DNA from: a virus
DNA: 38,965 nucleotides
Strand: one strand, 5' to 3'
IMG/VR virus record: IMGVR_UViG_3300029481_000019
Part shown: in pieces, positions 2,446-38,720 of the stretch
Layout of the letters: each line of letters starts with the position of its first letter
How positions within the stretch are numbered: the stretch's first letter is position 1
Made by a program: the position numbers and the translations under genes
Notes under the pieces: generated by a model
Database searches by the model: none
Seen by the model: only the letters and a program-made list of their open reading frames with translations
What the model was told of the DNA's origin: nothing

Positions 2446-3906
2446 TTACTCCATCGCGTCGTCGCCTACACCGTCGTCCCCGCCTTGCAGCGATACCGCG
2501 CCGACGAGGCTGCCCATGCGCTCCTCGTTCTCGGCGTCGAGGCGTTCCTTGATCGCCGGCACCTCGCTGGGCGAGATATTCGGCAGCTTGCGCAAGATCG
2601 TCTCGTGGTCGAGGTACTGCGCCTCGCTCATGACCATGTCGACCTGCTCTTTCTGGTTGCTGATGCGGGTGCGCTTAAACACGGGCGTATCTTTGATACC
2701 CATAAGGGCGAGAAGCTGCTGCACGAACTCGGAGACTTGGTATTCGAAATCGCTCGCCTCCTCGTCCATAGGCTGGTACGCCGCATCGATGTGGTCGTTG
2801 GTGGCACCAGCCGCCACCGTATGCACATCGAGGGCGCCGAAGTCCTCGTAGATGCCGTTGCGGATCGACTGCAGGTACGCCTGGCGTGCGGCGTACGGGA
2901 TCTCCTGGGTATACGCCTGCGCATTGCCGCCGTCATCGGAATCGACGAGCGCGACGTGGTTGATCTTCAGGCGGTCGAGGAACTTCTGCAGATCCTTGTC
3001 GCTCATGCCGCCCGCGTTCGACACGAGCCAGTAGATCTGCGCGCAGTCAGTGAGGTCGTTCGCGAAGCCGCTGCGGATCAGGTCGTAGCTGTCAATCGCC
3101 TGGCGCATGCCCACGAGCGTCGACTGGTGGAGCTTCGAGCCCCACATCGGCACCACAGGCAATGCCGAGTAGTTCTCGCCGCCGATCACCTGCTCGATCC
3201 CGTCGGCCGGCGTATAGCTCGTCTTCTCGATATACGGGCGCTTCTCATCGACCGCCTCGAGGCGTTCGTTCGTGACGCCGTTCGCATCCTGACGGCTCTG
3301 GTAGCGGGTGTAGCCGTCGGCCTCGTATAGCACGACCTGCATCGGGCGCGAGCTATCGATACGCCAGAAACGGATGCCTGCCTTGAGCGTGCCGTCGTAT
3401 TCGTCCCAGAGGGGTACGAACTCCGTCAGCGGGAAGACGAACATGCGGTTGAGGTTCCAGAAGCCGAAGCACACGCCGTGGATGAGCGCGTCATATGCGA
3501 GCGTGCGCAGGTCGTGGTCGAAATGCTTGCCGAGCTTCTCCTTGGTCTCATCCTTCTTGCCCACCTCGTCGACATCGATGAAAGACACACCCTGGCCGAG
3601 CGAATACATGGTGCGCTGGGTGTTCAGGCGGTGGAAGAAATTGCTGGCGATCTTGTTGTTGCTCGCTGTGAAATCGACGAGCTTGGACCCGGTGATGTCG
3701 AAGACCTTCTGCACATAGCTGTTAATCGTCGTGTTCTCCTGGCGGTCGTATGCATCGGCCATGCGTGCCATGCGGTACGCCTTGCCCGACTTATGCCGCT
3801 CGATCGCCTCCAGTACGAAGCCCTCGCGGTTGGCGTCGCCTGCCTCCACGAAATCCTGGTACGTGAGCATGCGCGACTTGTCGTCGCGTACCTCGTCCCA
3901 TCTCAT
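2446..3906 (-). CDS. portal protein
   Basis: 486-aa ORF directly downstream of terL with an ATGA start/stop overlap. Its size, position and acidic C-terminus are typical of siphovirus portal proteins. Confidence 0.8.
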   Translation of the reverse strand: MRWDEVRDDKSRMLTYQDFVEAGDANREGFVLEAIERHKSGKAYRMARMADAYDRQENTTINSYVQKVFDITGSKLVDFTASNNKIASNFFHRLNTQRTMYSLGQGVSFIDVDEVGKKDETKEKLGKHFDHDLRTLAYDALIHGVCFGFWNLNRMFVFPLTEFVPLWDEYDGTLKAGIRFWRIDSSRPMQVVLYEADGYTRYQSRQDANGVTNERLEAVDEKRPYIEKTSYTPADGIEQVIGGENYSALPVVPMWGSKLHQSTLVGMRQAIDSYDLIRSGFANDLTDCAQIYWLVSNAGGMSDKDLQKFLDRLKINHVALVDSDDGGNAQAYTQEIPYAARQAYLQSIRNGIYEDFGALDVHTVAAGATNDHIDAAYQPMDEEASDFEYQVSEFVQQLLALMGIKDTPVFKRTRISNQKEQVDMVMSEAQYLDHETILRKLPNISPSEVPAIKERLDAENEERMGSLVGAVSLQGGDDGVGDDAME

Positions 3907-5180
3907 AATGCGAACCTCCTAGGCCCCTCGTCTGCGCCGCCCATGAACGGCGACTCGTATACCATGTCACGCGGCCTGTACACACGCTTGGTCTTCACGA
4001 AATACCTCAGCGCATCCATGCCGTGGTCGTCAACCTTGACAGGCTTGTCTTGGTCTGCCTTATCATCCCACACATAGCCTGTGAACTCGCGCGCCAATTC
4101 GGTGAGTGTGTCGCCGATCTTGACCTGCCCCAACTGCATTGCGCTCGCGGTGTCGCGCACGCCGTCCCCGACATCGTTGTCGGCCTTCCTCACCTTGAAC
4201 CCGCCGCGCTTCCGCAGCTGCGCGATGAACGACGATGCGCTGGGGTCGACGATGATCTCGACGTCTGCGTCCTCCGGGGCGTCGTCTGTGAACACGACTA
4301 GGTCATTGACGTAGTCGGGGTCTGTCTTCTGCCTGCCTTCCTCACGTCCCGAGTAGCGGTACTCACCGACCGCATGCCAGGTACCGGCGGAATCGAGCAG
4401 CCACTTGATCGCATGGAACGGGTTCTGCGTGCCGTAGTCGATGCTCACGCAGTAACCGCGTACGTCTTCGGGCTTCTCCGGCGACCATGTCGGCTCCTGG
4501 GCATCCTTCCAGTTAGGGTACACGAGGCCTTCGGCCTTCGCCCACAGGCCCCTGATGTATCGGTCGTAGTACACCGTGCCGCGGTACTCTGCCTTGAGGC
4601 CGGCGACATAGGCCGCAGGCAGGAACGGGTTGTCGTCGATCGTGTACCTCTGCACGAACATATCGATGCCGGGATCAGCCTCGCCCTTGTCGATGAACTG
4701 CTTGAGCCAATGCGTGGGGCCTGCCGGGTTGCATGCGCCGTGGCATTCGCTGTACGGCAGGCTCAGGCGGCTCTTGAGCATCTCGAACACGTCCGGGTGG
4801 ATGTCGCAGATCTCGTCGCAATATGCGAACTTGACCTCGGAGCCTCGGAGCTTCGATACCTGGCCTGCGTTCTCGGCGCCGATGCAGTACACGCGCTCGC
4901 CGAAGACCTCGCACCAGTTGCGGGCGTTGATGTCGCCGACGAACTTATCGCCCCACATGTCACGCATCGGCGTCAGGACGTTGCGCTCGATGTTCTCCTT
5001 CGTGGCGCCTAGGATCAACGCCAGGCCCTTCTTGCCGCGCAGCTTGATCAGCCTGTCGGGGATCGTGTACTGCACTGCCAGGTGGCTCTTGCCGGAACGC
5101 ACCGCGCCCGTGGCGAGGTTCCAGCGGTGGTGCGCCTCGCGCACATATTCCGCCTGCTTACGCGTCAGGTGTATCTCCAT
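3903..5180 (-). CDS. terL: terminase large subunit
   Basis: 425 aa with a Walker A motif (GAVRSGKS), an ATPase region and a C-terminal nuclease-like region resembling PBSX/SPP1-type TerL. It overlaps terS. Confidence 0.9.
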   Translation of the reverse strand: MEIHLTRKQAEYVREAHHRWNLATGAVRSGKSHLAVQYTIPDRLIKLRGKKGLALILGATKENIERNVLTPMRDMWGDKFVGDINARNWCEVFGERVYCIGAENAGQVSKLRGSEVKFAYCDEICDIHPDVFEMLKSRLSLPYSECHGACNPAGPTHWLKQFIDKGEADPGIDMFVQRYTIDDNPFLPAAYVAGLKAEYRGTVYYDRYIRGLWAKAEGLVYPNWKDAQEPTWSPEKPEDVRGYCVSIDYGTQNPFHAIKWLLDSAGTWHAVGEYRYSGREEGRQKTDPDYVNDLVVFTDDAPEDADVEIIVDPSASSFIAQLRKRGGFKVRKADNDVGDGVRDTASAMQLGQVKIGDTLTELAREFTGYVWDDKADQDKPVKVDDHGMDALRYFVKTKRVYRPRDMVYESPFMGGADEGPRRFAL

Positions 5181-5658
5181 CGGCCGCCTCCTCTATCTGC
5201 ACGAGCACGTTCTTCACGTCGATGATGTCGCCGTCGTCTGCCGGGAGCTGGGGCTGCATCGAACGCCAGGCGTCACCGCGGCGGTTGAACAGCCACATGG
5301 CGATGGCCTTCACGTCTGCCGGCACGTGCTTCTTGACCTTCTTGGTCAACACTTCCCGGCCAGTATCTCGGTCGAGCGTCCATGTCTCCTCGAAATAGTC
5401 GTACCCCAGCGCACGCCTGAGCAGCGCGCCCTCGACCTGGCCGTCTACGAGGTCCTCGGTGACGGTGAGCGCCTTGTCCAGCTCGGGCGACTGCTGGCGC
5501 CATTTCGCGAGTGTGTTGTGCGTGATCCCAATCTTGTCTTCGGCGATCGCCCTCACCGACAGCCCTCGGCGCCTCCAGTCGTTGATCAGCTCGATGCCGT
5601 CCTCGCCGAGCCAATAGCGCTTGCGTTGTACCGCGTTGTTGAATTTGATATAAGGCAA
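5158..5658 (-). CDS. terS: terminase small subunit (HTH-containing)
   Basis: 166-aa ORF immediately upstream of terL with an HTH-like segment (LSVRAIAEDKIGITHNTLAKW). It starts at TTG with a GGAGGG RBS and sits just downstream of iteron region A. Confidence 0.65.
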   Translation of the reverse strand: MPYIKFNNAVQRKRYWLGEDGIELINDWRRRGLSVRAIAEDKIGITHNTLAKWRQQSPELDKALTVTEDLVDGQVEGALLRRALGYDYFEETWTLDRDTGREVLTKKVKKHVPADVKAIAMWLFNRRGDAWRSMQPQLPADDGDIIDVKNVLVQIEEAADGDTPDA

Positions 5659-5799
5659 AACTTCCCTCCTGTCCTATTTGGCTATATTCTACAACGCGAT
5701 GTTCACCTGTACTGTTCAAGTGACTTTCGGGTAGTACGCATAGTGCCTACCATGTAAATCGAAACGCCTTCAAATGTTTACCGAGGTCGACATATACGC

Positions 5800-6210
5800 C
5801 CTCGACTACCTGTCACACTGCTGTCACACAGGTGTCACACCGCTTTTTTCGATTTATCTGCACAGTGTGACAGGTAGTATCGACAAAACGCGATGTAGAC
5901 GCATGTGTTTACAACTACCTGTCACACTGTCACACTGGCATGCTCCCCTATACCCCTATATTTTGAAAATATATATATTTATGAAATGATAGATATTCCT
6001 ATAGAAAATATCTAATATAGGGGCGGCCTGCTGTTTGCCAGTGTGACACTTGGGTACCCAACAATTTACCTACGTCGCGTTTTGACGCCTACTACCTGTC
6101 ACACTGGCCCAAAAGCCGTTTGACAGGTAGTGTGACAGTAACTTGCGCAGAACACCGCTATGCACCGATCTACGTCGCATTTTGACATCTACTACCTGTC
6201 AACCACGCAG
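5800..6210. repeat. Iteron / AT-rich palindrome element A. It has about 10 copies of the 8-bp core TGTCACAC (variants TGTCAAAC, TGTCAACC) in both orientations, including three copies phased at 11 bp (~5811, 5822, 5833) and a tandem pair (~5920/5928). A ~50-bp AT-rich spacer is flanked by the inverted repeat CCCCTATATT / AATATAGGGG (~5953-6023). There are 16-17-bp CTACGTCGCGTTTTGAC boxes at ~6070 and ~6170 and an inverted copy at ~5882.
   Basis: Read directly from the sequence. Element B at 22360-22670 is homologous and shares the core string AAAATATCTAATATAGGGGC. Confidence 0.8.
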
Positions 6211-6361: not shown

Positions 6362-6643
6362 TCACTCCTCAAACTCAGGGCAGCAGTTGCCTTCGTCCGT
6401 GACTGCGTCCTCGACCGCCGCGAGGATGTACTTCGGCGACCACCTCTGCGTGCCCTTGAGCTTCGCGACCGCATTCGCCAGCGTGGGCGCGCAGATGCAG
6501 CAGTCCAGTTCGTCCGATTCGATGCAGTGTTTGCACTCGCTGCAGTAACGGCGCTCTCCGCCGTACGCACGGTCGATGTCGCCGTCAAGGCACCCCGGCG
6601 GCAGGTTGTACCCGCTGATGGGCTCGTACTCAGCCATGATCAA
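6362..6643 (-). CDS. small Cys-rich hypothetical protein (likely true start ATG ~6637, MAEYEP...)
   Basis: ORF with multiple Cys pairs (CSECKHC, CCIC, CCPEF). Last gene of the early block. Confidence 0.45.
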   Translation of the reverse strand: MIMAEYEPISGYNLPPGCLDGDIDRAYGGERRYCSECKHCIESDELDCCICAPTLANAVAKLKGTQRWSPKYILAAVEDAVTDEGNCCPEFEE

Positions 6644-6818
6644 CTTCTTTCGGTTCGCACTTCTTGATGAATATGATCACAGAGTCGCAATGCGCACAAC
6701 GGTATTTGACTTCGCGCATGAGCGGCTTGCCCTTCTCGCAGACGAACACACGGCCGTTGGGGATATGCCCTGCGTGAGGGTCGATCTGCCTACCGCAGTT
6801 GGGGCATTTAATGGGCAT
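6630..6818 (-). CDS. zinc-ribbon small protein
   Basis: 62 aa, CPNCG...CAHCD motifs, GAAGG RBS. Confidence 0.5.
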   Translation of the reverse strand: MPIKCPNCGRQIDPHAGHIPNGRVFVCEKGKPLMREVKYRCAHCDSVIIFIKKCEPKEVDHG

Positions 6819-7155
6819 GGTTCACTACCTTCCTTCCGCACTGGGGGCAGAAGTTCCATGTGCCGCTCACGTGGTAGTGCTCCTCGTCCTCGACCCTGCA
6901 TCCGCAGACCGAGCACTCGAAGCCGTTGTCACAGGCTCCCATTTCGTTCTCGTCGTAGACGTTCTCGCACTCGCCGCGGTCGATTAGGTCGGCAATACGC
7001 TCGAACACGTCGTTCATCTCGTGGTATCCGATGTCGGGTTCCATTACCGTCTCGTCCAGCAGTTCATAGAACTCTTCTTTGTAGCGGACGCGGTTCATGT
7101 AGGATAGGTGACGCAGATTCTCTACAGTCTCGCAGCGCTCATCATTGGTAATCAT
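6808..7155 (-). CDS. zinc-ribbon hypothetical protein (paralog of 7152-7490)
   Basis: Starts MITNDERCETVENLRHL and shares MIT-DE, RIADLIDR, CxxCG and CPxCG blocks with the upstream gene. ATGA overlap with the upstream stop. Confidence 0.5.
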   Translation of the reverse strand: MITNDERCETVENLRHLSYMNRVRYKEEFYELLDETVMEPDIGYHEMNDVFERIADLIDRGECENVYDENEMGACDNGFECSVCGCRVEDEEHYHVSGTWNFCPQCGRKVVNHAH

Positions 7156-7490
7156 TCGTCCACCACCTCTGCACGGCACTCCGGGCAATATGTGAAATCT
7201 TCCGGGTCGCAGTCTGAATCGCCATATGTAAATGCTTTATACCCACACTGGCTGCAATGGAACGACCTGTAGTCATTCGAGAGGTTTCGGCATGTCGGGT
7301 TGTCGTGTCGGTCGATCAAGTCTGCGAGACGTTGAAATATGCTGCCGTCGAGGCCGACGGTGGCATCGCGGATCATGTTGAGTACAGATGCCTCATGTGC
7401 AATCGTGCGGTCGCAGTCCTCATCGTCGACGAGGTGGTCGAGTTGACGCAAAGTATGCACTACTCGGCGGCGCTTTTCATCAGTAATCAT
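7152..7490 (-). CDS. zinc-ribbon hypothetical protein (paralog of 6808-7155)
   Basis: 112 aa, GAGGAG RBS and C-terminal CSQCG / CPECR zinc-ribbon motifs. Confidence 0.5.
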   Translation of the reverse strand: MITDEKRRRVVHTLRQLDHLVDDEDCDRTIAHEASVLNMIRDATVGLDGSIFQRLADLIDRHDNPTCRNLSNDYRSFHCSQCGYKAFTYGDSDCDPEDFTYCPECRAEVVDE

Positions 7491-8668: not shown

Positions 8669-9496
8669 CTAGATACATTGATCGATTACGGCTTTGCCGC
8701 GTAACTGGTCGACCCACTTCGGCGGGATTGCCCCAAAACCGTAATACACGCCCGCGATAGCACCCGCGACAGCAGCCGTAGTATCGGTGTCGTCGCCTAA
8801 ATTGACGGCTGCGAGCACACAATCAGTATATGAGAACGTATTTAAAAAACACCAGAGCGCGGCCTCGAGCGTATGCTCGCAGTAGCCGTCGTTTTTGACT
8901 GCCTCGACAGGCCTCGATGCGATGTACCCGTATCTATGCCAGAGGTCGCCCTTCGCCGGCGTGCCGACATTGCGGATAGTCCGCAACATATCACACAGCG
9001 TTACACATGACCACTCGGCCACTGGGTGCGCATGCGTAATTGCCGAGACATCGCGTATATCATAGGGTTCGATGGGGTCGAGCATGGCGAGCGGTGCCGT
9101 CCTCATGAGCGAGCCGTTGCCGCAGTCGTCATATGACTTAGCAGGCACGCCTGTCGAAATAGCCCTCTTGCATGTCACGCCGACATCGAATACACGCCCA
9201 TCACACGTGTAGTCACCGTGCTCCAGCCATTGACGGAACCTGTAGGCGATGTCAGCCGTGTCGATGATTCCGAGCCGCTTGATGCTCGCGCATATGCACA
9301 AGGCCATCGACGTGTCGTCAGACCACGTGCCGGCATACTGCCCGTGCGTGCCGCCGTCGACCATGCCGGTGCATTCGAACGTGCCTCGCTCACGAAACTC
9401 ATATGGCACGCCGAGGGCGTCGCCGACTGCGAGCCCGTATATGCACGAGCGCATACGGTCCCTGTCGTATGATACGCAGTTATATATTGTCGACAT
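8669..9496 (-). CDS. ADP-ribosylglycohydrolase (ARH/DraG family)
   Basis: Starts MSTIYNCVSYD with a GAAGGAGGTG RBS. The N-terminal GLAVGDALGVPYEF motif and size (~276 aa) fit the ARH family. Confidence 0.8.
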   Translation of the reverse strand: MSTIYNCVSYDRDRMRSCIYGLAVGDALGVPYEFRERGTFECTGMVDGGTHGQYAGTWSDDTSMALCICASIKRLGIIDTADIAYRFRQWLEHGDYTCDGRVFDVGVTCKRAISTGVPAKSYDDCGNGSLMRTAPLAMLDPIEPYDIRDVSAITHAHPVAEWSCVTLCDMLRTIRNVGTPAKGDLWHRYGYIASRPVEAVKNDGYCEHTLEAALWCFLNTFSYTDCVLAAVNLGDDTDTTAAVAGAIAGVYYGFGAIPPKWVDQLRGKAVIDQCI

Positions 9497-9674
9497 AACG
9501 CACCTCCTTCGCCTCGTACTCGCCGACAGTACCGTCGGCGAACTCGACGAGCCCGACGGGTTTCTGGTTGTTCCCGAGGAAACCGCCACGCTGGAACCAC
9601 CCGATCAAGCTGCCGCCGTGCCCGTGCACAGTGACAGGCCTCCGCTCCATGGCCACGATCACTTCGACCTGCAT
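9480..9674 (-). CDS. small hypothetical protein
   Basis: 64-aa ORF translationally coupled (TGATG) to the upstream MazG-like gene. Confidence 0.4.
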   Translation of the reverse strand: MQVEVIVAMERRPVTVHGHGGSLIGWFQRGGFLGNNQKPVGLVEFADGTVGEYEAKEVRYVDNI

Positions 9675-12569: not shown

Positions 12570-12995
12570 CTATGCACTTGTGACGACATCGACACCGGCG
12601 TTGTCTATCATGCGCGTGCACACGGGGCATGGTGAGATCTCATCAGCCGAGATGCGCTCGCCTGTCTCGAAGTCGACGCCAGCCAAGTACAGCGTCGCGC
12701 CGATCATCTCAGAGCGTGAGGCCGACAACATGGCGTTCATCTCGGCGTGTACCGCCGGGCATGAGCCGTAATCGCCGTCGTTATGCCCGTGCCCGCAGCG
12801 ATGGCATATACCTGTATCGATGCAGTTGACATCACCGCGCGCGGCGCCGTTATAGCCTGTCGCGATGATCTCATCATTGGCCACGATTACGGCGCCGTAG
12901 CGACGGCGCAGGCACGTCGACCTGGCCGCCACCGCGAGTGCGATGTCGAGGTAATACTCGGCTTTACTAGGCCTCTCCGGTCGATCCGAAAGCAC
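12570..12995 (-). CDS. dCMP deaminase (zinc-dependent CMP/dCMP deaminase family)
   Basis: HAEMNA and PCPVC zinc-ligand motifs. Probable GTG start with GAGGAGAGGGG RBS, overlapping the dUTPase 3' end; the track ORF extends to 13028. Confidence 0.75.
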   Translation of the reverse strand: MLSDRPERPSKAEYYLDIALAVAARSTCLRRRYGAVIVANDEIIATGYNGAARGDVNCIDTGICHRCGHGHNDGDYGSCPAVHAEMNAMLSASRSEMIGATLYLAGVDFETGERISADEISPCPVCTRMIDNAGVDVVTSA

Positions 12996-13386
12996 CGTCG
13001 CCCCTCTCCTCGCCCAACTGCTCGACAAAGTCGGCCAACACGATCGGCATGACGACGAGCTGGCCGATGCGGGTGCCGCCGGGGACCTTCTTCAGTTTGT
13101 CGGTTAGGTTGGTGACGATCGCATGCACCTCACCGGTATAGCCGGAGTCGATCGGCGGCAGCTCGCAGACGAGGCCTTCGAGGCTCATGCCCGATCTGGG
13201 GAACACGCAGGCCATGACGCCGTCGGGCAGCTCGAGCGAGAAGCCTAGCGGGATGCGACGGGTCTCGTGCGGCTTCAGGGTCTCACCGAAAGTGGTGTAG
13301 ACGTCGGCGCCGGCGTCGTTATAATGCGCACGGACCGGGAGCTTGATGTCGGTATCCTCGGCGATACGGTTGATTTTAATCTTCAT
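12967..13386 (-). CDS. dut: dUTPase (trimeric dUTP pyrophosphatase family)
   Basis: All five dUTPase motifs are present: AGADV, PRSG, PPIDSGYTGEV, RIGQLV, RGDGAFGSTG. Confidence 0.85.
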   Translation of the reverse strand: MKIKINRIAEDTDIKLPVRAHYNDAGADVYTTFGETLKPHETRRIPLGFSLELPDGVMACVFPRSGMSLEGLVCELPPIDSGYTGEVHAIVTNLTDKLKKVPGGTRIGQLVVMPIVLADFVEQLGEERGDGAFGSTGEA

Positions 13387-14194
13387 CCTTTACCTCCGTG
13401 ACGATGGCGTTATTAAGGCAATATTTAGTGACAGTGTGCCTCGGCGTATCGGACGACATGGTGATGCGTTCGATCTCCGAGATATGGGTCAAAAACTTCT
13501 CGATGTCGAACTTGAGGTGCAGCGCCGCCTGCTTGCAGCACCAGACTTCGCGGACGCGGTCGATGTCCTTCTCATATGCATGGAGCGACACAGTGAAATG
13601 CGTATACTTGCCGTAGCCGACGCCGAGCTCGTTCGCGATGTGCTTCTGCAGCTCCGTGAAGAACACGACATCGTAGGGCGTGCCGAGCCATACGTCGTTG
13701 GAACGCATGATGCCGGTGCAGTCGAGCTTGCCCCCGCGGAGCTCGAACACGAGTGCGATAGTGCAGATCTCGTCTTTTGTCTCGAATCGCTCTGGGTTCG
13801 GCACATTGAAATTGATGACTGCGCGTCGTGAATACGGGTCACGCTTGAGCGTGTCGATGACCTGCGCGACCTGGTCGAAGCCATAGCGGTTGAACACGAT
13901 AGCGCCGTACGCAGATCGGTTCGTCACGCCATCGTCGCTGATGTGCTTCCAAAATGACGAGAACTTCGAGATGAACTCGACATCTTCGCGGCCGGTGAAA
14001 TACCATGCGAGCTCGCCCAACATATACGAAAGCGAGTAACCCATGCGGGCCGTCGCGATGTTGTCGGTGATGTCGAGCAGCGTGAAACCGCTGTTGAGCA
14101 GTTCTTTGGTGCCAGCTACCTCCTGGCCCTGCACCGATATTTTGCCGCAGAGTTGGCGGTAGATGTCGTTCATCGACTTGCCTACAACATGCAT
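13376..14194 (-). CDS. thymidylate-synthase-family pyrimidine C5-modifying enzyme, predicted dCMP-specific (dCMP hydroxymethylase or dCMP methyltransferase rather than a canonical ThyA)
   Basis: It aligns by eye to ThyA: ELAWYFTG ~ ELLWFLQG, DPYSRRAVINFNVPNP ~ DPDSRRIIVSAWN, catalytic Cys in EICTIA ~ APCHAF, and RSNDVWLGTPYDVVFF ~ RSCDVFLGLPFNIASY. The residue equivalent to ThyA Asn177 is Asp, the substitution that switches specificity from dUMP to dCMP (as in T4 gp42). His147 is also replaced. Confidence 0.7.
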   Translation of the reverse strand: MHVVGKSMNDIYRQLCGKISVQGQEVAGTKELLNSGFTLLDITDNIATARMGYSLSYMLGELAWYFTGREDVEFISKFSSFWKHISDDGVTNRSAYGAIVFNRYGFDQVAQVIDTLKRDPYSRRAVINFNVPNPERFETKDEICTIALVFELRGGKLDCTGIMRSNDVWLGTPYDVVFFTELQKHIANELGVGYGKYTHFTVSLHAYEKDIDRVREVWCCKQAALHLKFDIEKFLTHISEIERITMSSDTPRHTVTKYCLNNAIVTEVKDED

Positions 14195-14658
14195 TTCAGC
14201 ACCTCTTTCATGGCAGTCGCCGGGTTGTTGTCTTCGAGCACAATCGCGGCGTCGTGTGCCTCAGCCCACTCCTGGTAACGCTTGTAGATCTCGACGATGT
14301 TCGGGCAGACGACATCGGCGTACTCGTCGCCGCGTTCGTTCAGGCGGCCGATGACGACATGGAGCGGGGGCAAAAGCACGATGATCGGGATACGCGCGAA
14401 CTCGCAGAACTCCGTCAATTCCTCCGCATTGTCATTATTGATACGCGGCTCGCGGCCGAACAGGTCGGAATACACTTGCTCCGACACCCAGCAGCGGTCG
14501 ATAATGACACCGTCGCATGCGAGCTTCTGCAGATACTCCGGCATAGACTGGCCGCCGTTGGCGGTCATTTTCAGAATGTTCATGTCGAGTGCTCCGGCCA
14601 ATGACTTCGCGAGCGTGGACTTGCCGGCGCCGTCAGGGCCTTCGATGATGATGGGCAT
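14182..14658 (-). CDS. deoxynucleoside monophosphate kinase (thymidylate-kinase-like P-loop kinase)
   Basis: MPIIIEGPDGAGKSTLAKSL P-loop, ~158 aa, adjacent to the TS-family gene and analogous in position to T4 gp1. Confidence 0.6.
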   Translation of the reverse strand: MPIIIEGPDGAGKSTLAKSLAGALDMNILKMTANGGQSMPEYLQKLACDGVIIDRCWVSEQVYSDLFGREPRINNDNAEELTEFCEFARIPIIVLLPPLHVVIGRLNERGDEYADVVCPNIVEIYKRYQEWAEAHDAAIVLEDNNPATAMKEVLKCML

Positions 14659-14661
14659 GGT

Positions 14662-16545
14662 TTACTCCTTTACGAAAATACGTACACGTTTGCCGTTGAC
14701 ACGGCAGGTCTTGCTTGTCAGGCCATAGTGCTTGTTGGCCTGGCGGGTGAACTCGTTTTGACCAAGCGGCTTCAAGTTGTTCCTGATAGCCCAGGCCATA
14801 TAGTAGTCGTATACCAGCGCCGTCGACTCGTTCACCACCTCGTCGACGGGCGTGTCTGCGAAGTAACCGAGGACGGGGTTGTTGGCGACGTGGTAGTCCT
14901 CGATCTCCTTGACCACGACCTCCGGCATCGTAAACGCGCGGTTTGCCAAGACACGCTCGAGCCCCTTGAGGCCGATGTTGATCAGGTGGCTCATGACTTC
15001 TGGCGAGTGGAGCTTGTACTTGATGTATGGGTCGAAGTCCGGGTCGTCTTTCGAAAATGTCGCCTTGAACGGCACGAGCACGATGCGGTCGAGCACGGCA
15101 CCGGTCTTGTCCCTGATGCGTGGCATCGAATTCGCCGAGAACAGCAGTTTTGCGTAACTCGAGAAATCAAACGGGTCTTGACCCTTCCGCTCGGCGTTGA
15201 CGCGGTCACCGCTTACTAGCTTCTTGAAAATCGCCGGGTTTGCGATGAACTCGTCGCCGATGTCGTCGCCTATATTGGCCAGCTTGCCGAACAGCTCTGC
15301 CGTCTTGAACCTCTCGCCGAGCTCAGCCAGGTCGAGGGCCGACGTGTTGCTGTCGCCTAGCAATGTCTTGAGCATGTCCAGATACGTCGACTTGCCGTTC
15401 GCCTTGTCGCCGACCAAGATGAAACTCTTGCGGAGCTCGTTACGCCTATAGAACAGATAACCGATGACCTCCTCCAGCAATGAATATATCCCGTCGTCAC
15501 CGCAGGCGAGGCGACGCAGCGTCTTATCGGTGAACTCCGACCAAATCGTCGGGTCATACTCCCACGGGATGCGGTTCGTGATCACGAACTCCGGCGAGAA
15601 CGGCATGAGTTCCCCCGTCTTGAGGTCATACACGCCGTTGGCGAAAGCGATGTAATCGGCATCGGCCGCAGGTGCGTCGTCTTGGATGAGCACGTCGAGG
15701 TAGTTGAGTACCTCGGTGCGCTTGGCCTTCGACAACATGGGCAAATGCTTGATCATCGCGTTCTCGATAAGCAGATTGCCCGACACATAGACGCCGTCGC
15801 GGTATACGTGGAGCTGATGGCCGATCTTGATGATACGGTGCTCGTTCTTGAGGTACTCGGCGAACTTGTCGAACAGGAACGTGCCTTTGTTGAAAAACAC
15901 ATCTTCGGCAAAAGCATCGTCGCGGTAGACAACGTCCAGTTCTTGCTGCTCCATAGGCTTTTCGAACATGTACCGGTTGATGACGGCCAGGGTCTCACGC
16001 GCCTCGTCTTTCGTGAAACCCTCCGACTGCAGCGTCAAAATATAATTGAATAACGCTTGGTTGCGGCCGTCGCCCTCTTCCATCTCGCCAAACTCTGGTG
16101 TGTACTGCACGGGCCTGAGCCAGCACGGTAACTCGTCATAACTTTCGTCCGGCTCGATGTCATAGATCACGTCGCGCTCATGGCCGTCGACTTTCAAGCT
16201 ACCATATGTGGCTTTCGACCCGACTTTGATGTCTGCGTCGATGCCGACGGCCAGGCGTGCGTGCGTCTTGCATTTCATGCCACGGGGGTAGCCGACGAAA
16301 TAGAAATGCTTGCCGCGTGTCGTCGCGACGACCTTGCATGCAATCTGCTCGGCCTCGATGATGTCCATCAGCTTCTCGCTCTGCGCCATGTCGTCGACAT
16401 CGATGAAAATCGTCTCAGGCGCCAACACACCACCGTAACCGTCGAGTTTGCGTGCTTGGGCCAATGTGAGGTATCGGCCGTCCTTCAACTTCTGCGCACA
16501 CTTCTTGCCATTGAGCTTCACGTATCCGATAAATAGACGGTCCAT
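14662..16545 (-). CDS. bifunctional primase-polymerase / D5-type superfamily-3 helicase (probable start MDRLFIGY at the TGATG overlap with the PolB stop; an alternative GTG start at 16620 is possible)
   Basis: N-terminal prim-pol-like region (FIDVDD, GKHFYFV) and a C-terminal SF3/D5 helicase with Walker A VGDKANGKST. Confidence 0.8.
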   Translation of the reverse strand: MDRLFIGYVKLNGKKCAQKLKDGRYLTLAQARKLDGYGGVLAPETIFIDVDDMAQSEKLMDIIEAEQIACKVVATTRGKHFYFVGYPRGMKCKTHARLAVGIDADIKVGSKATYGSLKVDGHERDVIYDIEPDESYDELPCWLRPVQYTPEFGEMEEGDGRNQALFNYILTLQSEGFTKDEARETLAVINRYMFEKPMEQQELDVVYRDDAFAEDVFFNKGTFLFDKFAEYLKNEHRIIKIGHQLHVYRDGVYVSGNLLIENAMIKHLPMLSKAKRTEVLNYLDVLIQDDAPAADADYIAFANGVYDLKTGELMPFSPEFVITNRIPWEYDPTIWSEFTDKTLRRLACGDDGIYSLLEEVIGYLFYRRNELRKSFILVGDKANGKSTYLDMLKTLLGDSNTSALDLAELGERFKTAELFGKLANIGDDIGDEFIANPAIFKKLVSGDRVNAERKGQDPFDFSSYAKLLFSANSMPRIRDKTGAVLDRIVLVPFKATFSKDDPDFDPYIKYKLHSPEVMSHLINIGLKGLERVLANRAFTMPEVVVKEIEDYHVANNPVLGYFADTPVDEVVNESTALVYDYYMAWAIRNNLKPLGQNEFTRQANKHYGLTSKTCRVNGKRVRIFVKE

Positions 16546-18774: not shown

Positions 18775-20508
18775 TTACTCTTCGACGACGCGGCGCTTAC
18801 GGGTGCGGCGCTTCGGCTTCTCCTCGACTGCCTCGGGCTCCGCGGCTTCCTCGGTGTCGAACGGCGGCTCTTCCTCGGTGACGGGCTTGGCTTTACGCGC
18901 ACGGCGTTTCGGCTTCTCCTCTGCTGCATCGGGCTCCTCAGCAACCTCAGTTTCAGCTTCAACCTCAGGCTTAGGCTTGGGCTCTGCCTTCTTGCGTGCC
19001 TTCGGCTTCTCGACCTCGACCTCGGCCTCGGCCTTCGTGCCCTGTGCCTCGAGCAACGCCGCGTTGAATGCATCGACCGTGAGGTCGCAGCGGTCGCGCT
19101 TGAAATCGATACGGCCGCCGCCGAAGACGTTCTCGTTCTTGCGGAGTTGGAGGAAATGGCCACGCTCGTCCATATAGGCGCGGAGCGTCATGGTGACAGT
19201 GCCGGCTAGCACGTTTGCGACCTTGTCCGGCAGGTTCGGCTTGAACGTCGAGACCTTCATACCGTTGGCGTACGTGATCTCCGTGACGAGCTCCTTGGAG
19301 ATATAGATGATACGGTAGCCGAGGGACTTGAGGCGCTTCATCTGGCTGAGGAACTCAGTGCGCACCATGTCCCAACCCTTGCCGTAACCGCCATCGCTCT
19401 CATGCTTGATGCCGAGCTGGTCGAAAACATAGAAACGGCAGTGCTCATAGAGGTCTTCGACCAAGTCGAGCGCGATGACGTGGAAGCTGTTGTCATGCTT
19501 CTCAAGCTCATCGATGACCTCACGGAACTTCGACCAAGCAAGCACCTTGTGGCTCATACGGCCCTCGGTCACGAGCTCGTCGGCAATCTGGATAAACGGG
19601 CTCGTGATATTCTGTGTGTTGCCGTCGGTGTTGATGAACAACACATCGTCGAAATGATCGACAAACGTCGACTTGCCGACGTAACTGTCGGCGTAGATCC
19701 ACATATCAGGGTCGGTGATGACGGCCTCAGGGCGGCGTTCGTTCTTGGGCAGGATAAGCATATCATTTCCTCCTAGACAGAAATCTTTGTAATCACACCA
19801 GTCGCATAGGCGCGACTCATGTTTCGGGAATTCGGTGGCGTTAGCCATAGTACAAGTGCCGACCGCGAAGTCGGCGACTTTTTGAGGGTCATACTGGACA
19901 CGGTATAGAGTCGGCCACATATCTTCCAACGTCGCAGCTAGGCGCTCACGGAATTGGTAGAGGTCTTCGGTCTTCTTCTGCCTGATCATCGTCTTGGGCA
20001 CAATCAGGAAGGCCATGTCTTGGATGATCTCACCGGGGTGCGTCTTCTCGTAGAAATATTTGTAGACGCTCAGCTGCCCGCTTTCGAGGTACCTGTCGAC
20101 GTTGTTCGAATACTTGAAATCGAGCATCGTCCATAGGCCCTTGCCGCGCGGGATGAGCATATCGATAAACCCTACGAAACCGCTGTCGTCTTCGACCTTC
20201 GTTTCAAATACCGGGTCGGTATCGTCGTCCGACATACCCCATGCGAACTCACGGGCACGAGAGCCGAGTACGCGGATCTTCATGAGCTCGTTTTCCATGA
20301 AATCGGTCATGACTGGGTACGCGGCTTTGTAGTTCGCGATGGCCTCGTCGATACCGACTTCGATGCATTCATGCAGCATCGTGCCGATCACGAGCGGGTT
20401 CGCGGCATCGCAGTTGAACGGCACTTCAAGGCTGTCGACATAATTGAGCTTGAATTTATGCGGGCACTGGGTGAAGGTACCTACCCTCGAATATGAGGTC
20501 TTGAACAT
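18775..20508 (-). CDS. fusion of a Cas4/RecB-like PD-(D/E)xK exonuclease (4-Cys cluster) and an AAA_24/Sak4-like ATPase, with a low-complexity KPE-rich C-terminal tail
   Basis: N-terminal Cys (TQCPHKF) plus C-terminal CDWCDYKDFC, as in Cas4 Fe-S nucleases. Walker A is ADSYVGKST in the second half. The tail contains a duplicated EEKPKRRxRK segment, also visible as a ~40-bp DNA direct repeat near 18800-18940. Confidence 0.7.
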   Translation of the reverse strand: MFKTSYSRVGTFTQCPHKFKLNYVDSLEVPFNCDAANPLVIGTMLHECIEVGIDEAIANYKAAYPVMTDFMENELMKIRVLGSRAREFAWGMSDDDTDPVFETKVEDDSGFVGFIDMLIPRGKGLWTMLDFKYSNNVDRYLESGQLSVYKYFYEKTHPGEIIQDMAFLIVPKTMIRQKKTEDLYQFRERLAATLEDMWPTLYRVQYDPQKVADFAVGTCTMANATEFPKHESRLCDWCDYKDFCLGGNDMLILPKNERRPEAVITDPDMWIYADSYVGKSTFVDHFDDVLFINTDGNTQNITSPFIQIADELVTEGRMSHKVLAWSKFREVIDELEKHDNSFHVIALDLVEDLYEHCRFYVFDQLGIKHESDGGYGKGWDMVRTEFLSQMKRLKSLGYRIIYISKELVTEITYANGMKVSTFKPNLPDKVANVLAGTVTMTLRAYMDERGHFLQLRKNENVFGGGRIDFKRDRCDLTVDAFNAALLEAQGTKAEAEVEVEKPKARKKAEPKPKPEVEAETEVAEEPDAAEEKPKRRARKAKPVTEEEPPFDTEEAAEPEAVEEKPKRRTRKRRVVEE

Positions 20509-20812: not shown

Positions 20813-22087
20813 CTAGTCACCTCCCATTGCAAACAGCTTCTCAGTGTAGTCGCGTCGCATAGCCAACGTATCGTAGATCTTCTCTTCGACAGTGCCTTTA
20901 GATACTAGCTCGTAATACGTGCATGGCTTGTCTTGGCCGACGCGGTGGATACGCTTCTTCGACTGCTCGAAGAGCGACGATGCCAAAGGCGGCGAGAAAT
21001 AGACGCACGTGTCTGCTTGCTGCAGGTTCACACCCATGGCACCAGACTGGTATTGAATGAGCGCGACCCCGTCGTCGGTATCGAAAAACGGCGACAAATC
21101 GTGTGCCTTGCCGTTGAGCACGCCATACGGCCTGTACCGCTTCTCCAACTCCGCCGTGAGCCCTTCGAGTTCGACGTCGAAATTGTAGAACACAACGAGC
21201 CGTTTACTCGTGCCGTCCAGCAAATCGCCGAACGCCTCGAGTTTGGCGCGCGAATACGCAGCCGCTAATTGGCGTTTCGCCGTGAGGTCGCCGAACACAG
21301 TGTCGCCGACGAAATCGCGGCCGAATGCCGTGATCACATTCGTCTTGGCGAACTTACGGTAATACTCGCTCATCGGTATGTCGATACGAATGAAACGCTG
21401 ATCAGGCAGGTCGATGACGTCGTCGGTCTTGAGGAAATCGCAACCGAGCTCCTTCATCTTGCGTACCAGCCTCTCCTCGTTCTTGTAACCCGTCACTTTA
21501 GTAATCGGGAAACCCTCACGCATCGTCGTCTCCGATTCGACGTATTGCCGCCAAAACAGCTTCTCGTCGATACGCCAGCCGAGCATGTTCAACTGCGTCC
21601 ACAGCCGTTCGTATTTGCCGTCGACAGGCGTGCCCGACAGCAAGATGAGCTCATTCGCCCTAGCTGCCAATTTCATCGCGGCCTTAGTACGCTTCGATGA
21701 TTTGTTCTGCAGCAATGACGACTCGTCGAACATTACGGCGAAACACTTCAACGCCTGAAGTTCTGGGCGCCTCCACAATAGGTCGTAATTGATCACACCG
21801 ACTGCGTCCCGTGCATGCGAGTCACCGATGCGCCGTTCAAAACCTTCCATGGCATGCGGCTTAGTCAAATTGACGACGTCGATATCATAGTAGTTTGCGA
21901 AATGGCCCATCCAGTCAGCCACTTTCGACTTTTGGCATACGACCAAGGCCAAATGCCAACACTTGTCCGACATCAATTTCTCGGCTCCGGTGAACGTCTT
22001 GCCCAGGCCCATGTCGTGGTAGAACGCGCAAGCGCGTTTACCCTCGACACGGTCAAGTGCTGCCTGCTGGTAAGCGAACAGGCCCAT
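20813..22087 (-). CDS. SNF2-family DNA-dependent ATPase/helicase
   Basis: GLGKT Walker A, DESS (DExx) box and helicase C-terminal motifs (QDKPCTYYELV...). Confidence 0.8.
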   Translation of the reverse strand: MGLFAYQQAALDRVEGKRACAFYHDMGLGKTFTGAEKLMSDKCWHLALVVCQKSKVADWMGHFANYYDIDVVNLTKPHAMEGFERRIGDSHARDAVGVINYDLLWRRPELQALKCFAVMFDESSLLQNKSSKRTKAAMKLAARANELILLSGTPVDGKYERLWTQLNMLGWRIDEKLFWRQYVESETTMREGFPITKVTGYKNEERLVRKMKELGCDFLKTDDVIDLPDQRFIRIDIPMSEYYRKFAKTNVITAFGRDFVGDTVFGDLTAKRQLAAAYSRAKLEAFGDLLDGTSKRLVVFYNFDVELEGLTAELEKRYRPYGVLNGKAHDLSPFFDTDDGVALIQYQSGAMGVNLQQADTCVYFSPPLASSLFEQSKKRIHRVGQDKPCTYYELVSKGTVEEKIYDTLAMRRDYTEKLFAMGGD

Positions 22088-22281
22088 TACACGAAAAACA
22101 TCGACTTGATTTCCTCACCAGTCAAGTCGTACCGGTCGGCGATAGCCTTGATCTCCGACTGTTTGAACTCGGCTTTGCCGTTGATCTTCCACGACAACGT
22201 CGATTCGGTGATGCCGAGCATTCGCGCGAGCCCGCTTTGGGTATCGCCGAACTCGCGGATTGTTTCATATAGGCTTTTCAT
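22087..22281 (-). CDS. Cro/Xre-type helix-turn-helix transcriptional regulator, first gene of the early block
   Basis: 64 aa with LARMLGITESTLSWKINGKAEF HTH and GAAGGAGGTGAAAG RBS. Directly downstream (in transcript sense) of iteron region B and a TAGTATAAT -10. Confidence 0.7.
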   Translation of the reverse strand: MKSLYETIREFGDTQSGLARMLGITESTLSWKINGKAEFKQSEIKAIADRYDLTGEEIKSMFFV

Positions 22282-22359
22282 CTTTCACCTCCTTCGATCG
22301 GCGAACCTCATTATACTACGTTTTCTTTCGATTTATTCGAGTATTTATAATTTTTTCGA

Positions 22360-22670
22360 AACACCTGTCACACTGTCAAACACCTGTCAAACGGCTGATT
22401 TTGGGCCTGTTTGACAGTAAGTCGCATCACTACGTCGCGTTTCTCACTGCCTGTCACACTGTCACACAGTTTTCTCCCCTATCCTTAGATAATTTGACTT
22501 TTTATATCTATATAAGGCCTATTAGATATATAGATATAAAAATATCTAATATAGGGGCCCCTTGTTGTTTGACAGCTTGACAGGTGATGAGAAACGCGAC
22601 GTAGAAATGCAAACACCTGTCACACTGGCCCTTTTAGGTGTGTGACAGGTGTTTGACACTGTTTGACAGG
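22360..22670. repeat. Iteron / AT-rich palindrome element B, with overall dyad symmetry. Forward TGTCACAC/TGTCAAAC copies lie on the left (~22366, 22374, 22385, 22452, 22460) and reverse copies on the right (~22567, 22640, 22651, 22661). A perfect 16-bp inverted repeat CTACGTCGCGTTTCTC (~22430-22445 / ~22589-22604) flanks the AT-rich palindromic core GGCCTATTAGATATATAGATATAAAAATATCTAATATAGGGGCC (~22517-22560).
   Basis: Read directly from the sequence. Homologous to element A (shared AAAATATCTAATATAGGGGC, TGTCACAC iterons, CTACGTCGCG boxes). Confidence 0.8.
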
Positions 22671-22676
22671 TAATTA

Positions 22677-22991
22677 CTACCGTAGTGCGTGGATCTGCGA
22701 CATGACGGCGTCGTACTCTTTCGGGCAGACGGCTTTGATGCACGACATGTGGTTGTCGAGTACGCCCATGAGTGCCGCATAGTCCACATTGGACGCCGCT
22801 TTCAAGAACTCAGACCCAGTGAGCTCGTCAGTGATGCGCTGTTCCATCACCGTGGCATCTACAGTAGGCTTTTTGAGGTGGTCGCGGACTATATACAGCC
22901 ACGCCAGCCTTTCGCATACGGCATAAGACGTGTCGCGCTTCTCCAGGTCGAGGATCTCCTCTTCGATGATCTCGATCGACACCATTTTCAT
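22677..22991 (-). CDS. hypothetical protein, 104 aa (last gene of the late block)
   Basis: ORF ending immediately before element B. Confidence 0.45.
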   Translation of the reverse strand: MKMVSIEIIEEEILDLEKRDTSYAVCERLAWLYIVRDHLKKPTVDATVMEQRITDELTGSEFLKAASNVDYAALMGVLDNHMSCIKAVCPKEYDAVMSQIHALR

Positions 22992-23674: not shown

Positions 23675-24082
23675 TTAGATCTTCGTGACGACGACCGCGG
23701 TATTGTCGATCGTGACAGTCGCCGGAACGGTCGCAGTGGTGATCACAAGCGTGAGCGTCGAGGTGCTGTCGCAGCACTGGTTACGCACGATCGCCGGGAT
23801 ATTGACCGACACAATACCCGCGGCTGCCGCGGTGATGGTCTGCGTGGCGCCGGGCACGGCGACGCCGTCTTTGAACAGCGTGACGGTATATGCACCGGCG
23901 GCGGTAGGCGTGAACGTGACGCTGGCATCGACATTGAAATAGCCCTGGCCTTTAAGCAGGACGCCGTTACCCGACAGGACGGCATTGCAGCCGAAACGGC
24001 GGATAGTCGTACCGAGCGGGATATGTTTGGGTAGTGAAGCGGAGCGTACGGCCGTTGACCTACTTGAGCATATATAAGATGT
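23675..24082 (-). pseudogene. Open frame (~136 codons) encoding a Thr/Ala/Val-rich beta-sandwich-like domain (BclA/C1q-like flavour) but lacking a canonical start codon. It is a possible gene remnant or uses a non-canonical start.
   Basis: The frame is open from ~24082 to stop ~23675 (…GYFNVDASVTFTPTAAGAYTVTLFKDGVAVPGATQTITAAAAGIVSVNIPAIVRNQCCDSTSTLTLVITTATVPATVTIDNTAVVVTKI). No in-frame ATG/GTG/TTG with an RBS near the 5' end; the only in-frame GTG is at ~23857 with no RBS. Confidence 0.25.
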
Positions 24083-24737: not shown

Positions 24738-24778
24738 ACGAACATTCGATCGATAAGGCATTTCCGCCTGGGCAAGAT

Positions 24779-24812
24779 AGGGGCATGGCTCAGGCCGTGC
24801 CCCTATTTCAAT
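24779..24812. terminator. Hairpin (AGGGGCATGGC...GCCGTGCCCCT) between the convergent plus moron and the minus gene 24803-25120; a bidirectional terminator candidate.
   Basis: ~11-bp stem with one G-U pair, followed by ATTTCAAT on the plus strand. It overlaps the stop of the minus gene. Confidence 0.4.
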
Positions 24813-36050: not shown

Positions 36051-36457
36051 GGCAGTTTCCTCCAACGATTGAGGCGTCGGCGAAATGCGTCTTGCCATCG
36101 CGCCGGCATGCCGTCGGAAGCAGTGGCCTTCGTATACGAATACCCGCCGAACGACTCAGAAGTATATGCGGAGTCGGGGTTGGCTTTGCGCCACGCCTCG
36201 ATTTCGGTCGCGATGTCAACGACCGCCTTCGGCACGGCCAGTGCCCACACCTCACCATCGAATACCTCATCAGTGAGGTCCGACGTCGGGTATTGGTGCA
36301 GGCCGTCGTTGAACACACTGCCGACGATGCGGTAGTACTGACCCTTCTTGACGAAGCCATGCGGGAGGGTGAGCTCGCCGTCCATGACGGTGAGCTCACC
36401 TGCGAGGTAATCGCATTCGAACCAATTGTGGATCTCTGCGAGCAACTCCTCCAGCAT
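36047..36457 (-). CDS. head-tail connector protein (gp6/gp15-like)
   Basis: 136-aa acidic protein immediately after the major capsid gene. Confidence 0.5.
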   Translation of the reverse strand: MLEELLAEIHNWFECDYLAGELTVMDGELTLPHGFVKKGQYYRIVGSVFNDGLHQYPTSDLTDEVFDGEVWALAVPKAVVDIATEIEAWRKANPDSAYTSESFGGYSYTKATASDGMPARWQDAFRRRLNRWRKLP

Positions 36458-38712: not shown

Positions 38713-38720
38713 GGTACTCC

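Follow-up and report, generated by a model that had tools for sequence, protein, structure and literature searches.

What does a long array of short repeats do at the head of a phage late operon, and why does the same genome carry it twice? The question is raised by IMG/VR record IMGVR_UViG_3300029481_000019, a virus sequence of 38,965 bp that we analysed over its whole length and refer to as the window. Two non-coding elements, A (5805-6204) and B (22350-22685), share an 8-bp iteron, TGTCACAC, arranged around an AT-rich core. A preliminary description of A, made from the letters alone, had read it as an iteron-type replication origin or a multi-operator switch that might also contain the late promoter or the packaging (pac) site. 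The present analysis favors the origin: A and B are probably twin Rep-iteron replication origins that bracket the replication genes, from the SNF2 helicase through the dUTPase. This reading is supported by the anatomy of the elements, the instability of their cores and an encoded initiator-helicase of the PriRep5/P4 type, while the suggested late promoter, pac site and Cro-like binding protein did not hold up.

The window, from a gut phage, is a complete assembly whose first and last 77 nt are identical, and the assembly is thus circularly closed. Almost all of its genes lie on the minus strand. In the direction of transcription, element B is followed by the early genes, a terminator (6281-6254), element A, the late genes and a few unknown genes, after which B is reached again. 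The early genes are, in order, a Cro-like helix-turn-helix (HTH) protein (22087-22281), an SNF2 helicase, a resolvase-like nuclease, a PD-(D/E)XK-AAA_24 fusion, a DUF669 protein, a DNA polymerase, a primase-helicase (14662-16545), a dNMP kinase, thymidylate synthase, dUTPase, dCMP deaminase and small genes. The late genes begin with that of the small terminase, terS (5158-5658), and continue through terL, portal, head and tail genes that wrap across the window origin, and an endolysin (25503-26705). The earlier placement of A "upstream of terS" is thus correct on the minus (gene) strand and incorrect if read on the plus strand.

Two iteron dyads around AT-rich cores

Exact TGTCACAC occurs 14 times in the window, nine times in 5811-6137 and five times in 22366-22647, always inside A or B. 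Shuffled sequences (n=100) contain 1.6 copies on average and at most 5, and none reaches 14. The variant TGTCA[CA]AC behaves similarly, with 21 of 22 matches inside the two elements and a single stray at 18724, so that the clustering of the motif in A and B proposed in the preliminary description is borne out by the genome scan. All the other sequence features listed there were also recovered at their positions, including the copies in both orientations, the three direct copies 11 bp apart and the adjacent pair. Altogether, A comprises 11 iterons and one degenerate copy, and B comprises 12 iterons. The features of element A are as follows.

5805-5840, plus strand: outer array nearest terS, with three direct copies of TGTCACAC at 5811, 5822 and 5833 (11-bp period)
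5865-5872, minus strand: single inverted iteron, GTGTGACA on the plus strand, within a 16-nt perfect inverted repeat with 5805-5820
5881-5898, minus strand: box2 copy CGACAAAACGCGATGTAG, 89% complementary to 6070-6087
5920-5935, plus strand: inner tandem iteron pair with an 8-bp period, starting at 5920 and 5928; the same geometry is found in distant relatives
5945-5962, no strand: G+C bracket CCCCTATACCCCTATATT, the terS-proximal edge of the core, invariant in relatives
5959-6019, no strand: AT-rich core, 87% A+T, the least stable 60-bp window, proposed as a DNA-unwinding element
6005-6023, no strand: invariant edge of the core, AAAATATCTAATATAGGGG (gene strand CCCCTATATTAGATATTTT), the same in A and B
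6033-6048, minus strand: inner inverted pair, degenerate GTTTGCCA (6033-6040) followed by GTGTGACA
6070-6087, plus strand: box2 copy CTACGTCGCGTTTTGACG
6097-6137, both strands: outer iterons on the terminator side, at 6097 (plus), 6118 (minus, TGTCAAAC) and 6130 (minus)
6170-6204, plus strand: distal module found only in A, with box2 CTACGTCGCATTTTGAC (6170-6186) and the iteron variant TGTCAACC at 6197

The corresponding features of element B are these.

Left half: iterons at 22366, 22374 and 22385 (plus strand) and 22409 (minus strand), box2 at 22430, tandem pair at 22452/22460 (plus strand)
22493-22553, no strand: AT-rich core, 84% A+T, with a perfect 16-nt palindrome (22499-22514 / 22527-22542)
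Right half: tandem pair at 22567/22575 (minus strand), box2 at 22594, iterons at 22618 (plus strand) and at 22640, 22651 and 22661 (minus strand)

Each element is organized as a dyad, in which outer iterons and a tandem pair lead into an AT-rich core bracketed by CCCCTAT/ATAGGGG, followed by an inverted tandem pair and further outer iterons. The inner pairs face each other across the core, at 5920/5928 (plus) and 6033/6041 (minus) in A and at 22452/22460 (plus) and 22567/22575 (minus) in B. The degenerate GTTTGCCA, which completes the inverted pair to the right of the core of A, is an addition to the preliminary description. The AT-rich spacer of about 50 bp given there corresponds to the 51 nt between CCCCTATATT (5953-5962) and AATATAGGGG (6014-6023), which are perfect inverted repeats, and the CTACGTCGCGTTTTGAC-type boxes, here called box2 (motif CTACGTCGCGTTT), are present three times in A, twice in direct and once in inverted orientation.

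Element B, the second homologous copy noted earlier, is collinear with A and in the same orientation, with 76% column identity. The longest exact match between the two (20 nt) falls on the core edge at 6005-6023, and B lacks the extra distal module of A (6140-6210). B is a near-perfect architectural dyad: three outer iterons, one inverted iteron, box2, the tandem pair and the core are followed by their mirror image, and its long inverted arms of 66 nt are 77% complementary. The genes located just upstream of the two elements, p93 (6362-6643) and p104 (22677-22991), are not paralogues. Therefore, the duplicated unit is the non-coding element alone.

Duplex stability was calculated from nearest-neighbor energies in 60-bp windows across the genome. 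The cores of A (dG -57.6) and B (dG -58.9) are the two least stable windows, compared to a genome mean of -90.2 (standard deviation 5.7) and a value of -67.8 for the next-lowest window. We propose that this instability, which matches the appearance of a DNA-unwinding element, reflects such a function. The iterons are also better conserved than the remainder of each element. Iteron columns of A are conserved at 0.977 compared to 0.838 for the rest of the element (p 3e-13; 24 relatives), and those of B at 0.983 compared to 0.922 (p 3e-6; close relatives). The center of the AT-rich core is hypervariable among relatives, with indels and changes in the length of TA repeats, and its edges are invariant. 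This pattern fits a constraint on composition at the center and on exact sequence at the putative binding sites. Box2 and the core edge CCCCTATATTAGATATTTT might be recognized by a second domain or a host factor, or might belong to a promoter. A scan of the whole window at Rfam gathering thresholds returned no RNA family, and the reading of the element as an RNA gene or riboswitch was dropped after this result.

Iterons in relatives and the candidate initiator

About 35 close relatives of the phage are present in IMG/VR, and homologues of its primase range gradually in identity from 98% down to about 52%. The iterons change along this gradient.

L109: primase 78% identical, iteron TGTCACAC, as in the window
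L110: primase 72% identical, iteron CGTTACGC
L106: primase 67% identical, iteron CGTCAAGC, plus a palindromic box AAACGTACGTTTATCTAAGG
L111: primase 64% identical, iteron TGTCTCACGA
L107: primase 62% identical, iteron TGTCTCACGA (also given as TGTCTCAC)
L112: primase 60% identical, iteron TGTCACAC, as in the window
Many relatives: primase about 55% identical, iteron AAGTCAAGAT or GGTTCAAGAT

Relatives with primases 52-78% identical to that of the window retain both elements, some with other iterons, and at least six iteron types are seen among these phages. The duplicated cis element of the preliminary description is supported, and the two copies within a genome use a matching iteron wherever both positions fell inside the fetched DNA. 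As the iteron matches in both copies of one genome, one trans-acting protein must read both, and the same protein would bind A and B.

The dyad geometry recurs in about 19 distant loci, whose hosts differ widely in G+C content: a tandem pair with an 8-bp period and an inverted tandem pair flank a gap of 64-116 bp (78-95% A+T). Of the two elements, the first invariably lies just upstream of the replication module, at its SNF2 end. The second is found just upstream of terS in three of these phages (L142, L149, L153); in four others (L141, L165, L167, L180) it directly follows the dUTPase gene and lies 2.3-2.8 kb upstream of terS. The constant feature is therefore the bracketing of the replication module and not adjacency to terS. 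A duplicated cis element had been called unusual for a 39-kb phage; the twin layout is instead conserved across a wide set of uncultured phages, and the oriL/oriR pair of SPP1 provides a precedent (PMC6316719).

Single clusters located after the primase gene are also seen, directly in L143 and within about 1 kb in L108, L173 and L176. In the temperate Paenibacillus phage Wanderer (L193), whose primase is 48% identical, an AT-rich stretch that directly follows the primase gene is surrounded by GTAACAGA iterons, a position equivalent to that of the SaPI origin. The repeat sets that flank this gene (36189-36455 and 38547-38804) are both unannotated in the record, and the upstream set consists of AACCTTCA/GAAGGTTT repeats, which differ from the downstream GTAACAGA set.

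Two early proteins have to be considered as readers of the iterons.

14662-16545, minus strand: P4-family primase and superfamily 3 (SF3) helicase, 627 residues, proposed iteron-binding initiator
22087-22281, minus strand: Cro-like HTH protein, encoded by the first early gene

The primase-helicase contains the Pfam domains D5_N and DUF5906 (SF3 helicase) and a weak C-terminal match to Pox_D5. It passes the NCBIfam model TIGR01613, "phage/plasmid primase, P4 family", with 204 bits (cut-off 108.7), and a 57% identical homologue carries the same name. The only match in a phmmer search of the PDB is PriRep5 of SaPI5 (7OLA), with an E-value of 1.2e-38; residues 245-607 align with chain residues 383-745, from the D5_N region across the SF3 helicase into the C-terminal domain. 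Family and domain scans revealed no other initiator-like, ParB-like or repressor-like protein in the early region. The Cro-like protein, which the preliminary description had put forward as a possible binder, is unlikely to read the iterons, as it does not co-vary with them: the Cro of L110 is 62-65% identical, with a nearly identical recognition helix and a different iteron (CGTTACGC), and that of L112 is only 36% identical, with the same iteron (TGTCACAC). Thus, the assignment of the primase-helicase as the binder is based on two points, its homology to PriRep5 and P4 alpha and the absence of another candidate, and not on covariation.

Covariation was sought in nine conserved early proteins, by comparing the same-iteron genomes L109 and L112 with the different-iteron genomes L106, L107, L110 and L111, and in the C-terminal domain of the primase, for which 48 loci were sorted by iteron; neither comparison yielded a segment that discriminates between iteron types. 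Divergence within the primase is always highest in the C-terminal ~90 residues (33-58% identity compared to 55-82% for the core). The AAGTCAAGAT and GGTTCAAGAT groups are distinguished by a Thr/Lys difference in the wing region, which is confounded with phylogeny.

Under the origin model, the primase-helicase would recognize the 8-bp iterons TGTCACAC/TGTCAAAC, probably through its C-terminal domain, and assemble on the inverted tandem pairs that flank the ~60-bp AT-rich core. It would then melt the core and, in the manner of SaPI Rep proteins, load itself bidirectionally as an SF3 helicase, after which synthesis would be started by the primase domain and the phage DNA polymerase. We infer binding, melting, firing and the role of the second copy from the features described above. 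The second copy might be a second firing origin, a cis enhancer resembling crr of P4, or an initiator-bound roadblock resembling oriR of SPP1, which would stall the first fork and trigger recombination-dependent synthesis of concatemers. The phage encodes a recombination toolkit consisting of the PD-(D/E)XK nuclease-AAA_24 fusion, the DUF669 protein, the Holliday-junction resolvase-like nuclease and the SNF2 helicase. This makes an SPP1-like barrier role for one copy plausible; two firing origins are plausible as well.

Several observations weigh against the twin-origin model or against the primase-helicase as its initiator. No 30-residue window in any of the conserved early proteins separates same-iteron from different-iteron genomes, and the C-terminal domain of the primase is 53% identical in L109, which shares the iteron of the window, and 58% identical in L110, which has another one. 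The elements are located about 5.8 kb upstream and about 8.5 kb downstream of the initiator gene, unlike the origins of SaPIs. Both elements head transcription units, and the last iteron of B is about 50 bp from the early -10 sequence, so a regulatory role, alone or in addition, may apply. The model gives no role to box2 (CTACGTCGCGTTT) or to the invariant core edge CCCCTATATTAGATATTTT. Additionally, as the distant loci were fetched by primase homology, the association between element and primase is partly by construction, and the whole replication module travels with the primase.

Flanking signals, alternative functions and neighboring genes

The positions of the flanking genes and transcription signals bear on each of the alternatives.

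5158-5658, minus strand: terS, first gene of the late operon (PHROG 309, E 1e-29)
5691-5686, minus strand: -10-like hexamer TAGAAT of the late operon, family pattern GTAnAATATA, assigned from conservation and outside the element
6281-6254, minus strand: intrinsic terminator (stem-loop and T-run) that closes the early operon just upstream of A, conserved in relatives
22310-22315, minus strand: putative -10 TATAAT of the early operon, conserved, about 50 bp downstream of the last B iteron

The early terminator is thus present, as described earlier. The late -10-like hexamer lies about 120 bp from the last iteron of A in the window, with variable inserts of up to about 500 nt between them in relatives. 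Consequently, A is not the late promoter that it had been suggested to contain. In relatives such as L027, L024, L031, L005 and L078, the inserts between A and terS carry tandem TATACACAG / TGTGCATACCGCATATACACAG-type repeats just upstream of the late -10. This repeat family is separate from the iterons and absent from 5700-5800 of the window, and it might be a terminase or late-regulator site. In L106, three clear extended -10 promoters (TGnTATAAT) are located at 3080-3130, 3900-3950 and 18985-19010. They follow the iteron elements and precede the first early genes, cro and terS, a cleaner placement than in the window.

The same signals make it reasonable to ask whether A and B are operator arrays of a transcriptional switch, at which a phage DNA-binding protein would time or repress the early (B) and late (A) operons, with the core serving as a promoter or UP-like sequence. 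Both elements lie between the end of a transcription unit and the next promoter, the proximal iterons of B end close to the conserved TATAAT, and the 11-bp spacing puts the three direct iterons on the same side of the helix. In both elements, weak sigma-70-like matches (CTGGCA or CTGTCA, a 16-nt spacer and TATATT) also point from the core edge toward the genes, but promoter scans inside the cores gave only 9-10/12 matches, at about shuffle frequency (4 vs 1.1 and 2 vs 1.0), and the clear promoters of L106 are downstream of the elements, not within them. Iteron type is not tracked by the Cro-like protein, the sole recognizable early regulator. A lies at a large and variable distance from the late -10, and several genes separate the second element from terS in L141, L165, L167 and L180. 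Furthermore, a dyad around an AT gap of 80-100 bp is typical of origins, not of operators. We therefore consider an operator array unlikely as the explanation of the elements, although a transcriptional role of initiator binding, such as autoregulation of the early promoter near B, could be compatible with the origin model.

Two further explanations concern packaging and recombination. Small-terminase sites in other phages are repeat arrays near terS, as in pacL/pacR of SPP1 and cosB of lambda. In the window, as in most close relatives, terS is the gene directly downstream of A, and a circular assembly with overlap is compatible with headful packaging; A might accordingly be a pac or cosB-like site whose repeats bind the small terminase, with B as a secondary or decayed copy. 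This is very improbable, since B is as well conserved as A (iteron columns 98%) with no terminase gene nearby, and in the four distant relatives named above the second element follows the dUTPase gene directly and is separated from terS by 2.3-2.8 kb. The matching element of Wanderer follows the primase gene, with terS at the other end of the genome, and the TATACACAG-type repeats between A and terS in relatives are a better candidate for a terminase site. It is also quite doubtful, if slightly less so, that the elements are recombination or module-boundary sequences, used in module exchange or loop-out, or centromere-like partition sites of a plasmid-like state. The two copies form direct repeats around a functionally coherent module; one contig carries a hybrid of the left part of A and the right part of B through which the early operon's end is connected with its start, although it may be an assembly artefact; and the two copies in L171 are identical over >200 nt, which we count as an indication of gene conversion. 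No integrase was seen, and the contigs are unintegrated in two 'Collinsella' bins. However, no ParA or ParB was found among the window proteins by family and domain scans, and pure recombination sites need neither a fixed iteron dyad around an unstable AT core nor genome-specific iterons. In the species of the window, core identity between A and B is 0.767 within genomes and 0.769 between genomes, so concerted evolution is not seen and exchange is rare, which counts against a recombination function. Twin replication origins thus remain our preferred reading of A and B.

The AT-rich cores are also places where contigs of relatives end. These ends include L004 (end) and L018 (start) of contig 3300045988_037932, L011 and L025 of contig 046971, the starts of L041 and L051, and both ends of L170. 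L170 (17,120 bp) is 100% identical to the stretch between the core centers of L171, a 50.9-kb relative, with 7 nt missing between its ends. In L171, the elements at 4252-4510 and 21379-21640, identical as noted, are homogenized or recently duplicated. Ends within the cores might be assembly breaks at an AT-rich repeat present in two copies, or might mark real ends of molecules or steps in copy number at origins. The hybrid element is located at 4870-5730 of L035 (contig IMGVR_UViG_3300029553_000114, also L068 and L129). Its left side is of the A type, with p93 and the terminator upstream, its right side is of the B type, with cro and SNF2 downstream, and the crossover falls at GCCCCTATATTAGATATTTT, the invariant core edge. 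It is the product expected of recombination between A and B that loops out the early region, or else a mis-join. The ends and the hybrid may likewise be assembly effects or traces of real recombination or replication intermediates. In L067 (1-100; contig 3300045988_111945), B is reduced to the three promoter-proximal iterons and joined to 100 nt unrelated to the window, either by natural deletion or replacement or as a chimera.

Recombination between A and B at CCCCTATATTAGATATTTT would loop out a circle of ~16.5 kb with one hybrid origin and every replication gene, which could amplify itself. We regard such a circle as a long shot; the hybrid contig of L035 and the length of L170 would fit it without proving it. 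If real, it would be an internal mini-replicon, or a defective-interfering or plasmid-like form.

If the origin model is correct, it offers a rule, at the level of sequence, for finding the origins of a large group of uncultured siphoviruses from the gut and the environment that carry primase-helicases of the P4/PriRep type: a tandem iteron pair, an AT gap of 65-115 bp and an inverted tandem pair, found twice around the replication module. The naturally diversified iteron specificities would provide a comparative system for how self-loading SF3 helicases read DNA and for why two origin copies are kept. The twin layout is widespread, cleanly defined and directly testable. In practical terms, the repeated AT-rich cores mark places where metagenomic contigs break or may be mis-joined.

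No nucleotide match to the element, or to 25 kb of the genome, was found among INPHARED phages, and the terL of Butyrivibrio virus Ceridwen is 53% identical to that of the window. Near-identical contigs that are not integrated occur in two metagenome-assembled genome (MAG) bins labelled Collinsella. A genome-collection scan with CCTGTCACACTGTCACAC gave 31 matches, mostly due to chance, in which the true relatives are the two 'Collinsella' MAG contigs only.

The last early gene before A, p93 (6362-6643, minus strand), encodes a 93-residue Cys-rich protein without a family match. Its position is conserved and typical of late activators, yet it is only 72-94% identical among relatives that are otherwise ~96% identical. 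Two adjacent small proteins (6808-7188 and 7152-7490, minus strand) both match phrog_21525 and are thus tandem paralogues, the first with a zinc-ribbon-like C-terminus. The early region also encodes (8669-9589 and 12570-14658, minus strand) an ADP-ribosylglycohydrolase (E 6e-58) and a nucleotide-metabolism set of dCMP deaminase, dUTPase, thymidylate synthase and a dNMP-kinase-like protein. L110 carries instead HMUDK_HMUD1-family, PAPS-reductase-like and ParB_N proteins, a hint that some members of the family may modify their DNA bases.

Elsewhere, a minus-strand open reading frame (ORF) of >800 residues spans the window origin downstream of portal and is probably a minor head protein fusion. 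The seemingly gene-free stretch at 1-2446 (and 38880-38965) arises because the ORF lister misses this origin-crossing frame. Between the lysis genes and B, a plus-strand gene (24105-24737), on the strand opposite to nearly all others, is predicted to encode a 210-residue membrane protein; the ORF at 24123-24761 on the minus strand was rejected as a gene, being its shadow. The adjoining G+C hairpin ATAGGGGCA...TGCCCCTAT (24770-24806) could terminate transcription in both directions. A conserved-looking frame at 23675-23985 (minus strand), ending in ...TVTIDNTAVVVTKI*, lacks an ATG, GTG or TTG start over most of its length; a frameshift, an unusual start codon or a decayed gene are possible explanations.

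Comparison with known replication systems

The organization of A and B can be compared with four groups of replication systems. The SPP1 genome (44 kb) contains two similarly organized origins, oriL and oriR, about 13 kb apart, each with repeats and an AT-rich unwinding element, and gp38 binds both (PMC6316719). It is proposed that gp38 bound at oriR stalls the first fork and triggers a switch from theta to sigma replication (PMC6316719; PMC3485210). A Holliday-junction resolvase, an exonuclease, a recombinase and a single-strand DNA-binding protein take part in this switch (PMC6316719; PMC3485210; PMC5737612). One of the SPP1 elements is located in a non-coding gap with transcription signals on its two sides. 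The window resembles SPP1 in its siphovirus-size genome, two origin-like elements and an analogous recombination toolkit. However, gp38 is unrelated and works with a DnaB-type helicase and its loader, whereas the candidate here is a self-loading SF3 primase-helicase. No Pfam match to the gp38 family of origin-binding proteins (pfam09524) was found among 30 proteins from the early region and the genes flanking A and B. In addition, oriL of SPP1 is located inside gene 38, and the SPP1 repeats, as direct boxes, lie next to the unwinding element and do not surround it as a dyad. The resemblance would thus be functional only, by analogy.

Iteron plasmids and the lambda ori-O system share with A and B the repeated initiator sites beside an AT-rich unwinding region, and an iteron specific to the replicon. 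They differ in that their direct repeats lie on one side and their RepA- or O-type initiators recruit the host DnaB helicase; no RepA- or O-type initiator is encoded among the window proteins scanned. The CI/Cro switch of lambda is a different case, as the Cro-like protein here does not track the iteron and neither a CI-like gene nor divergent transcription is present at B.

Satellite phage P4 requires both ori and crr for replication, and both are bound by the alpha primase-helicase. The two sites reportedly share an octamer-type iteron read by this one multifunctional protein. They are structurally unlike each other, and crr is not known to fire. The window shares with P4 a primase of the same family (TIGR01613) and two separated, conserved cis elements with the same iteron. 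In contrast to P4, the two copies here are collinear homologues, each with its own AT core, and the P4 iteron (TGTTCACC) is unlike those found here. As a reason for keeping two origin copies, fork stalling and the switch from theta to sigma are still only a proposal for SPP1, and crr of P4 is likewise without an explanation.

The correspondence with the SaPIs is close. Their ori contains 6-12 short iterons around an AT-rich center, with at least two iterons per side in opposite orientation, and the C-terminal winged helix of SaPI Rep recognizes the iterons, with two hexamers thought to self-load on either side (PMC9371898). The initiators are homologous (PriRep5, 7OLA), with primase and helicase fused in one protein in both cases, and A and B fit the published origin plan except for copy number and distance from the initiator gene. 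The SaPI iterons are 5-6 nt long, compared to a core of 8 nt (about 14 nt with flanks) and an extra box2 in the window. The SaPI ori is single and immediately downstream of rep, whereas two copies bracket the whole replication module here, in a complete tailed phage with its own DNA polymerase and not in a satellite. Each ingredient has a precedent, and the element is best read as a putative Rep-iteron origin of the SaPI/P4 type, in a conserved twin arrangement.

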